From Escherichia phage MIZ4, in the sequence record OR167180: a stretch of DNA of 64,000 bases. The stretch is one strand, 5' to 3'. Of the stretch, positions 30,938 to 32,051 are shown in pieces. The position numbers and the translations under genes were made by a program. Below the pieces are notes generated by a model that saw only the letters and a program-made list of their open reading frames with translations, searched no databases and had not been told where the DNA came from. Positions within the stretch are counted from its first letter, which is position 1. Each line of letters begins with the position of its first letter.

Positions 30938-32051
30938 CATTATGTTCAGCGCGGTTCGCTACTCCCGCGCCCGTTCTCTTGCGAACTGCTACATGTCACC
31001 ATGTAGATCAGACTATATCACATTCTCATAGAGAATCCTGCCATTTCGAATCGCTTGATTCTACTCTACTCGGTTCGTTACCCTTTCGATAGTCGTTGAA
31101 CAACTGCATCTTTAAGCTCATTTTGATCAAACGGTGTTCTCTTACAGTACCCGCTATAATTCTTGGCAAAAGGTTTCTTCTTACCAAAGATCTCTTTTCC
31201 TGAATTATGTGCTTCAACAAGAAAATTCACCATTTCATCAAATGTGAAACTTGTAAATTTAGCATAAGTTTCATTACGTTTTGACATTATTTTACTCATA
31301 ACTTCCGGTCGTTTAGACGCTGAATTTTCGCGCTTCTCGCCAGCATTAAATGATACTAACTCACCGGAAACATATCTAGGATCATCACAACTAACTCTAA
31401 ACCGATTTCCTTCCTTATCCTTAACGATAACAGTATTCTTTAGCTTTTCTGCCATAGAATCAAGACCTTTTCGTATAGTGTCCTCATCAGCCCCGAAATA
31501 TTTCTTTCCGCTCATATCGGTTCTGGCTTTTCCGGTCTTGTTTTCGGATATTTTCAGTCTAACTTCCTCTCGCTTGGCTGGGTTATTGTCTCCAGCGAAT
31601 GCATCTTTGGTTAACGCCTTCACTTTATCGTCATAAGATCCTCTAGAGATGAAAGCATATGCTCTCTTGCATTCACCGTTATTGAATATTAAGCACAATA
31701 ACCGATGCGCCTCGACGTGGTCTTCAAACTTAAGCCTAACAAGATTCCATTTATCTAACCGATATTCAGGGAACATTGACTTCGGGCATATATGATGCAC
31801 CTCGGAATATTCTTCACCCTGATACGGATTAGACACCAGTTTAATGTAGTCGTTTAATGCTTCCTCGTTATGTATTTCGTACTTTCTTAAAATGTCTTTC
31901 ATCTCGCGCCTCCAATGTATATCAATATTTATATACATTATAAGACACGTTAGCTCAAAATGCAACTGCTGCTGATTGTCTCCTTAGAGATTTCCCAGCA
32001 ATTAAGCAGGTTATTCGATCACTGTCACCAGTGAAAGCCCCATATCAGTTT
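30938..32051 (-). mobile_element. Group I self-splicing intron (td-like) interrupting gene 43 in motif A, carrying an HNH homing endonuclease gene
   Basis: Exon junction restores [12 protein letters not shown]; intron ends ..GATATAGTCTG..CATGGTGACATG..CTGAACATAATG (resembles the T4 td intron 3' terminus as recalled); 5' part contains GACAATC-type core element; 5' exon ends in T, intron ends in G. Confidence 0.75.
31078..31902 (-). CDS. Intron-encoded HNH homing endonuclease
   Basis: HNH motif ..EVHHICPKS..EDHVEAHRLL; start set at ATG with GGAGG SD (ORF track uses upstream TTG); TATAAATA late-promoter-like element upstream inside the intron. Confidence 0.7.
   Translation of the reverse strand: MKDILRKYEIHNEEALNDYIKLVSNPYQGEEYSEVHHICPKSMFPEYRLDKWNLVRLKFEDHVEAHRLLCLIFNNGECKRAYAFISRGSYDDKVKALTKDAFAGDNNPAKREEVRLKISENKTGKARTDMSGKKYFGADEDTIRKGLDSMAEKLKNTVIVKDKEGNRFRVSCDDPRYVSGELVSFNAGEKRENSASKRPEVMSKIMSKRNETYAKFTSFTFDEMVNFLVEAHNSGKEIFGKKKPFAKNYSGYCKRTPFDQNELKDAVVQRLSKG

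Follow-up and report, generated by a model that had tools for sequence, protein, structure and literature searches.

A probable mobile group I intron with an intact HNH-type endonuclease reading frame in motif A of DNA polymerase gene 43 of Escherichia phage MIZ4

We analyzed a stretch of 64,000 nucleotides (the window) from Escherichia phage MIZ4 (sequence record OR167180) in which DNA polymerase gene 43 is interrupted on the minus strand at positions 30938..32051. The region is 100% identical to the same locus in Escherichia phage MIZ5 (Straboviridae, Krischvirus, RB49 group), and coordinates in the MIZ5 record were converted to window coordinates by subtracting 64000. The genes on the minus strand follow the order gp44, gp62, regA, a "DNA polymerase" coding sequence (CDS; 33253..32045), an "HNH endonuclease" CDS (31902..31078), a second "DNA polymerase" CDS (30867..29461), and uvsX. 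An intron is annotated in none of the GenBank records, which list two polymerase CDSs and a separate endonuclease instead. A preliminary description of this DNA had read the interruption as a td-like group I intron that carries an HNH homing endonuclease. Comparative sequence analysis supports that reading, and we conclude that the insert is very probably a group I intron (subgroup IA2) that is mobile and self-splicing and lies in motif A of gene 43.

Exon 1 of gene 43 (32052..33253, minus strand), which encodes a PolB DNA polymerase, covers residues 1-400 and the CT of the Leu-401 codon; it is annotated as "DNA polymerase" in MIZ5 and is colinear with RB49 gp43 and the RB69 polymerase. Exon 2 (29461..30937, minus strand) completes the Leu-401 codon with its first base and encodes residues 402-892. 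The N-terminal polymerase open reading frame (ORF; 33253..32045) ends in the window as had been described. The annotated start of the C-terminal ORF is the ATG at 30867, but the frame stays open upstream to 30939, with an in-frame TAA immediately upstream of that position, and the GenBank start of the exon 2 CDS is 23 codons too late. Joining T32052 to G30937 yields the motif A sequence that had been claimed and a CDS of 2679 nt (892 aa), the exact length of RB49 gene 43, and 887 of the 892 residues are identical to RB49 gp43 in a gapless alignment. Residues 2-891 of the spliced protein align with residues 4-902 of the RB69 DNA polymerase (1clq; 1185 bits), the 25-residue motif A stretch being identical, and the splice junction falls within motif A at L415|Y416 in RB69 numbering.

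The intervening sequence is 1114 nt long, as given in the preliminary description, and the alignment of the exons to intronless gp43 homologs that it had recommended places the insertion between CT and G of the Leu codon. The codons at the junction read ...TCC CT|G TAT CCA..., with the insertion between the second and third bases of the motif A Leu codon (DxxSL|YPS), and the predicted ligated exon junction reads ...UCCCUGUAUCC.... An uninterrupted CTG|TAT is found at this point in five intronless Krischviruses (RB49, Phi1, MIZ6, Whisky, and AV108). A junction one base downstream (CUA|UAU) was rejected because it gives A at -1 and fails to restore the CTG of the intronless alleles.

These intronless alleles set the boundaries of the intron (30938..32051, minus strand), which runs from AAACUGAUAUGGGG to CUGAACAUAAUG. 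The final base of the intron (...AAUG|) is the terminal G at 30938, and ligation restores the CTG of the intronless alleles. An internal guide sequence, GAUAU-GGGG, can be read at intron nt 6-14 (32038..32046, minus strand). Its GGGG pairs with the last four bases of exon 1 (CCCU, 32055..32052) to form P1, in which U-1 stands opposite G11 as a U-G wobble, and its GAUAU pairs with GUAUC of exon 2 (30937..30933) to form a P10 of 5 bp. Because the P10 strand directly adjoins the P1 strand, one guide sequence aligns both exons. The CCCU/GGGG pairing is kept in every homologous gene 43 intron examined, and P10 covaries in Pectobacterium phage POP12, where an A-U pair is changed to G-C.

Deletion of the loop (intron nt 96-938) leaves a 271-nt core, in which we drew helices by comparison with the td and nrdB introns of T4, both of which are IA2 introns whose self-splicing has been demonstrated experimentally. 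All helices lie on the minus strand. The 5' half of the core (31957..32037) was placed by helix mapping, pair counts, and an Rfam P4-P5 match. It contains P2 (32034-32029 with 32024-32019), the 5' strand of P3 (32010-32005), P4 (32000-31995 with 31975-31970), P5 (31990-31987 with 31982-31979), and the 5' strands of P6 (31969-31967) and P6a (31964-31960). The 3' half (30938..31113) was placed by an Rfam match at 30989..31249, by an alignment of ten cores (A2), and likewise by helix mapping and pair counts. Here we find P6a'/P6' (31109-31100), the 5' strand of P7 (31094-31090), P7.1 (31089-31087 with 31072-31070), P7.2 (31061-31057 with 31052-31048), the 3' strand of P3 (31042-31037), P8 (31036-31031 with 31027-31022), the 3' strand of P7 (31015-31011), P9 (31006-31000 with 30995-30989), P9.1 (30986-30983 with 30976-30973), and P9.2 (30970-30965 with 30954-30949). 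The combination of P7.1 and P7.2 between the 5' strand of P7 and the 3' strand of P3 is the hallmark of subgroup IA2.

Alignment A2 comprises the cores of the window intron, T4 td, T4 nrdB, the gene 43 introns of POP12, LIMEstone1, and PC3, two introns of Acinetobacter phage YMC13/03/R2096, a phiKZ-like intron, and a Vequintavirinae intron. In this alignment, 89.9% of the cells pair under the proposed structure, as opposed to 34.6-44.7% when partners are slid by 1-3 columns. Compensatory changes on both sides occur in 47 of the 66 pairs, and none of 500 shuffles equals any of the observed measures. Both helices of the P3/P7 pseudoknot were mapped: P3 pairs in 100% of cells with covariation in five of its six pairs, and P7 (GACUA/UAGUC), J6/7, and J8/7 (GAUAUAGUCUG) are invariant in all ten introns, T4 td and nrdB included. 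P7.2 also pairs in 100% of cells (four of five pairs covary), and P7.1 (UCG/CGA) is present with an extension that varies among relatives. Plain minimum free energy folding misfolds P4/P6 and cannot represent the P7 pseudoknot, and covariation was used in its place; the minimum free energy fold of the ORF-deleted core recovers P2, P3, P5, P7.2, P8, P9, P9.1, and P9.2 (z -3.2). An alternative pseudoknot at the 3' end (GUUCGC...GCGAAC) was rejected since P9.1 and P9.2 match the td/nrdB topology and covary.

The helix plan of the window intron, including P7.1/P7.2 and P9-P9.2, is the same as that of T4 nrdB and td. Identical or near-identical in these introns are J6/7-P7 (AACGACUA), J8/7-P7' (GAUAUAGUCUG), the P9 GUGA hairpin, and the 3' tail GAACAUA. 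The comparison with td in the preliminary description holds for the 3' end, as the td sequence given there is a 100% match to T4 and the two ends align, but the core as a whole is nearer to nrdB (66% identity) than to td (58%); identity to the other gene 43 introns is 69-72%. The core element GGAGACAATCAGCAGC that it had pointed out lies in P5'/J5-4/P4'. The T4 introns, too, hold their ORF in the P6a loop behind a late promoter inside a hairpin. They differ from the window intron in host gene, guide sequence, and endonuclease family, I-TevI being a GIY-YIG enzyme and I-TevIII an HNH enzyme of a different type, and the window ORF reaches further into the core than the T4 intron ORFs, through P7 into P7.1.

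The ORF in the P6a loop (31078..31902, minus strand) encodes 274 aa and is predicted to specify a Mob-like HNH homing endonuclease. It spans intron nt 150-974; its last 11 codons overlap P6a', P6', J6/7, and P7, and its UAA stop is in P7.1. The earlier claim of an HNH endonuclease is borne out at the level of the motif, HH...N...H...H, but not by the Pfam HNH models, which miss the ORF as well as all of 43 homologues. Searches of the PDB with the single sequence and with a profile likewise returned nothing meaningful. The ORF matches PHROG 12434 ("HNH endonuclease") at E 5.7e-131 and phrog_655 ("homing endonuclease") at 2.5e-19. In tblastn it has 57% amino acid identity to the POP12 intron ORF, and alignments to the ORFs in the first gene 43 intron of Ackermannviridae (I-LimII type) cover 96% of its length at about 35% identity. 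Endonucleases annotated as mobC or Mob-like align with its N-terminal 70-100 residues at about 40% identity. Among the 43 homologues, which are metagenomic, E34, H36, H37, P40, H62, and H66 are invariant and N53 is nearly so, and an alignment-based AlphaFold2 model (pLDDT 89.3) seats the conserved motif residues on a beta-beta-alpha unit. We base the HNH assignment on these invariant residues together with the predicted beta-beta-alpha fold and the Mob-type homology.

Upstream of the ORF is a candidate regulatory hairpin (31905..31949, minus strand) that folds at -18.6 kcal/mol (z -4.2), and none of 200 shuffles folds as well. The late-promoter-like motif TATAAATA (31933..31926) occupies its 5' arm and loop, and the Shine-Dalgarno sequence GGAGG (31913..31909) is sequestered in its 3' arm; both elements are present as first described. 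A leader that begins just downstream of TATAAATA is unstructured (0 kcal/mol). An analogous hairpin layout is found in the T4 nrdB intron, in POP12 and LIMEstone1, and in the metagenomic loci L023, L024, and L026, the latter five of which differ in sequence. In T4, transcripts made early in infection read through the intron without translation of its ORF, which is instead expressed from late transcripts initiated within the hairpin. By analogy, the hairpin and motif in the window appear to match this established scheme.

The intron is polymorphic among close relatives of MIZ4. Among 66 matching Krischvirus-type records, 11 have the full insert, two JSE records have a shortened insert, and the others are uninterrupted. 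All five intron-plus phages examined read GAC CTT ACT TCC CT|G at the site and carry CTTACTTCCCT|G, whereas all five intron-minus phages examined read GAC TT(A/G) ACA AGT CTG and carry TT(A/G)ACAAGTCTG. Six synonymous differences, all within 11 nt of the site, separate the two classes of alleles, and polymorphisms farther out are shuffled independently of intron status. At the level of DNA, intronless genomes of the RB49/MIZ6 type read ...GACTTAACAAGTCTGTATCCATCA... at the site, and the exon junction of the intron-plus alleles reads ...CTTACTTCCCTGTATCC.... The TCC CT of the patch gives the CCCU of P1 and is common to all intron-bearing alleles seen, including those in other families. Since single synonymous steps cannot take Ser from AGT to TCC, the best explanation of the patch is that exon sequence came in with the intron (co-conversion). 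The patch probably also shields the intron-bearing allele from its own endonuclease.

Within the intron, all 22 differences between Escherichia phage MIZ4 and JK32 fall in the part that is ORF only, and none falls in the ribozyme core. Decay of the endonuclease gene is seen in two other relatives and is independent in each. JSE has a 650-nt deletion in the endonuclease ORF and keeps the whole ribozyme core (locus L002, 2899..3100), and its promoter motif is mutated to TATAGATA. In PTE-Eco09 the ORF has a premature stop at codon 70 and the intron is 1 nt shorter, again with an intact ribozyme core (locus L019, 1599..2423).

In the model that we infer for catalytic splicing, promoter use, and the activity and specificity of the endonuclease, early and middle transcripts of gene 43 would read through the intron, and an in-frame UGA two intron codons in would halt ribosomes. 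The guide sequence GAUAU-GGGG would position both exons, pairing with CCCU of the 5' exon, including a U-G wobble at the splice site, and with GUAUC of the 3' exon. Transesterification initiated by guanosine, followed by attack at the terminal G, would ligate the exons as ...CUG UAU..., and the ligated product would be the mRNA for a single 892-aa polymerase. The endonuclease ORF would be silent in early transcripts because the hairpin sequesters GGAGG. Late transcription from TATAAATA would start within the hairpin, and the resulting leader, being unstructured, would allow translation of the 274-aa HNH endonuclease. In a mixed infection, the enzyme would then cut or nick intronless gene 43 near the insertion site, and repair from an intron-bearing genome would copy the intron and a few flanking exon bases, which constitutes homing.

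Several observations weigh against a mobile self-splicing intron. The ORF overlaps P6'-P7-P7.1, and its translation could interfere with folding. P1 is just 4 bp long and, because it is invariant among homologues, it has no support from covariation. The TATAAATA motif is not enriched, with two occurrences in the window where about six are expected by chance; its count alone is thus no evidence, and the evidence lies in its position and its conservation in homologues. We found no experimental work on splicing or cleavage of this intron in the searchable literature (Krischvirus, ECD7, JSE, LIMEstone). Finally, an Rfam search of the whole window at the gathering score (50 bits) gave no match. With an E-value threshold, the covariance search that had been proposed does match Intron_gpI (RF00028) at 30989..31249 (32.8 bits, E 2.9e-6), which is below the gathering score, and a second match of 13.2 bits covers the P4-P5-P4' element at 31970..32000. 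Controls place this score in context: T4 td, with its ORF in P6a, scores 36.9 bits and JSE, with its shorter loop, 42.9, while ORF-less relatives exceed 50 bits (58.6 for the PC3 gene 43 intron; 78.8 and 96.6 for the two introns of YMC13/03/R2096). As the T4 td control is also below 50 bits, we do not take the sub-threshold score of the window as negative evidence, and the score fits the 843-nt insert in L6a.

Another possibility is that the intron splices but that its ORF has lost homing endonuclease activity and is a relic or serves another role, for example as a maturase or a competition factor, in a vertically inherited intron. The decay of the gene in JSE and PTE-Eco09 fits this explanation, as do the lack of a Pfam HNH match and the precedent of I-TevIII, which is defunct in T4 itself (PMC2993671). 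On the other hand, the ORF is intact in at least nine sequenced phages, and its 17 synonymous and 5 nonsynonymous codon differences from JK32 indicate purifying selection. The residues of the catalytic motif do not vary among the 43 homologues, and the promoter motif and hairpin that are altered in JSE are intact in the window. The patchy distribution of the intron among near-identical genomes, with a linked exon patch of the co-conversion type, also speaks for movement. Taken together, we consider loss of endonuclease activity unlikely.

The locus could also be a split polymerase in which no RNA is spliced, a free-standing endonuclease gene having cut gene 43 into two cistrons whose products reassemble. 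This is how the GenBank records read, with their two polymerase CDSs and separate endonuclease, and it has precedents in gp43A/gp43B of Aeromonas phages 44RR and 25 and in the NrdA of Aeh1 that is split by mobE. Split PolB genes are real in T4 relatives (PMC2988022; Aes516), and one metagenomic relative of the window locus (L027) is additionally split in this manner. In Aes516, motif A is intact and the true split comes about 100 residues after it, but the break in the window lies inside catalytic motif A itself, between L and Y. Reading the downstream frame in the window, we found no ATG, GTG, TTG, or Shine-Dalgarno sequence between the closing in-frame TAA and the ATG at 30867, and a protein begun at that ATG would be missing 23 residues, among them the YPS of motif A. 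The downstream frame offers neither a start codon nor a ribosome-binding site for a C-terminal protein that would keep all catalytic motifs. A split gene would also leave aside a complete group I fold that is supported by covariation, a guide sequence that matches both exon ends, and a core that is more conserved than the ORF and persists in JSE after deletion of the endonuclease gene. We therefore regard a split polymerase as very improbable. Least credible of all is the notion that the group I likeness is a chance resemblance or a noncatalytic relic and that the polymerase is made in another way. The sub-threshold Rfam score could be cited for it, but the positive control T4 td scores equally low, and covariation is far above the shuffled and slid controls. 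The window intron also has the same P7 and J8/7 as proven introns, its carriers are viable isolates, and the 64-kb window showed no second, uninterrupted gene 43.

The preliminary description had named the polymerase as the target here, in contrast to the classical td, nrdB, and nrdD. While nrdD is indeed intact in the window (a single 620-aa ORF at 49338..51200), introns in gene 43 were already known, both at motif B of gene 43B in Aeromonas phage 25 and as a putative intron in JSE (PMC2993671). Petrov et al. (2010; Virol J 7:292, PMC2993671) flagged the latter as a putative group I intron in gene 43, in a remark that came without structure, boundaries, or experiments. JSE and the window intron share genus, insertion site, and ribozyme; the intron parts common to both are 99.4-99.6% identical, and the exon patch CTTACTTCCCT|G is the same. 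They differ in that JSE has lost 650 nt of the ORF and has the motif TATAGATA, whereas in the window both the 274-aa ORF and TATAAATA are intact. The window represents the intact form of an element known as a relic in JSE. Apart from the 2010 remark and "putative intron" labels, we found no literature on the intact form, the structure, or experiments with this intron.

POP12 (Straboviridae) and LIMEstone1 and its relatives (Ackermannviridae) have introns at the same site, after the CT of Leu in SL|YP, with the same P1 (UCCCU/GGGG), a homologous core (69-72%), and a homologous endonuclease. Unlike the close match in JSE, these belong to other genera or families and have diverged in sequence, and gene 43 of LIMEstone1 holds a further insertion. 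The insertions in the LIMEstone1 polymerase gene have been listed as "putative introns," with the ORF named I-LimII (PMC3296691). Table 1 of that paper gives I-LimII as GIY-YIG; the protein aligns with the HNH-motif family at about 35% identity, and the entry looks mistaken.

More distant cases are known from the literature. Self-splicing is on record for a group I intron in gene 43B of Aeromonas phage 25 (Petrov, Ratnayaka and Karam, 2010, J Mol Biol 395:457, as cited in PMC2993671 and PMC2988022). By sequence it is of the same family as the window intron, and it too lies in a T4-type PolB gene. A review predicts that it is mobilized by a free-standing endonuclease. In the phage 25-like Aes516, unlike in the window, the intron is at motif B (KILINSLYGA|), has no ORF, and is in a polymerase split into 43A and 43B. 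The Bacillus phages SPO1, SP82, and Bastille have HNH-encoding group I introns in their DNA polymerase genes (I-HmuI, I-BasI), according to the account in PMC2988022. As in the window, an HNH homing endonuclease within a group I intron targets a conserved polymerase motif, but according to the literature these are family A polymerases of unrelated phages. PDB sequence and profile searches with the window ORF detected no similarity to the SPO1, SP82, or Bastille endonucleases.

We found the same intron, endonuclease family, and insertion site in Pectobacterium phage POP12, in Limestonevirus and other Ackermannviridae, and in metagenomic T4-like contigs. It is an evenly balanced possibility that the ORF is an active HNH homing endonuclease for PolB motif A DNA (DxxSLYPS) that has moved together with its IA2 ribozyme between phage families, each time into the same phosphodiester bond. 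The proposed transfer would involve Straboviridae that infect E. coli or Pectobacterium, Ackermannviridae, and T4-like phages known from metagenomes. If this is true, the AGT-to-TCC change in the serine codon of the exon patch would directly mark that lateral import, and the 2010 view that such elements had not crossed T4-related clusters would be contradicted.

Two of the metagenomic contigs deserve separate mention. The first (Logan SRR21291464, locus L026, 1166..3970) has the same intron, endonuclease (41% amino acid identity), and site in a PolB that is about 29% identical to the window gp43, which suggests that the element follows motif A across very divergent polymerases. In the second, T4-like contig (metagenome ERZ27260095, contig k141_49174, locus L027, 8596..15297), the same motif A intron and endonuclease are present and the polymerase is split again about 90 residues after the intron. 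Its C-terminal cistron (390 aa, PF00136) comes some 2.9 kb later, after five small ORFs and a 368-aa gene that lies on the opposite strand and has a faint match to NUMOD3.

With the insert read as an intron, the correct annotation of the locus is one spliced gene 43. At least 12 Krischvirus genomes in GenBank, including coliphages that are candidates for therapy, list two fragments and a stray endonuclease, and a polymerase truncated in its active site could be misread as defective. The close relatives show three stages of the homing cycle, namely the empty site, the intact endonuclease gene, and the decayed gene with a preserved ribozyme, and motif A of PolB is indicated as a homing site shared across phage families. 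The element is an ordinary selfish one and a well-supported case of a known mechanism, and it leaves the understanding of group I introns unchanged. It belongs to the best-studied class of phage introns and will not surprise a specialist, but it offers a tidy natural series for studying homing.

Other endonuclease genes were seen in the window. A free-standing endonuclease gene at 41173..41727 (minus strand), with matches to HNH_3 (E 1e-11) and AP2 (E 2.4e-10), adjoins the SbcD-like (gp47) gene and belongs to the "HNH-AP2" class tabulated for RB49-type phages (PMC2993671). Beside the gene for the large subunit of topoisomerase II, a 277-aa "hypothetical protein" (17966..18799, minus strand) has a C-terminal Endonuclease_7 match (E 6.5e-16) and may be another mobile endonuclease.

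Our searches also brought up related introns in other phages. In Acinetobacter phage YMC13/03/R2096 (locus L009, 1342..1998), the two IA2 introns (78.8 and 96.6 bits) are in tandem, have no ORF, and lie in unannotated DNA just upstream of the CDS for the large terminase, which is probably mis-annotated and interrupted twice. One of them has a P7.1 segment identical to that of the window intron. In Escherichia phage A7_1 (Vequintavirinae; locus L010, 924..1673), a related IA2 intron with an HNH ORF precedes the CDS for the DNA primase/helicase; in the record, a hypothetical protein is annotated on the other strand in place of the intron ORF, probably by mistake.

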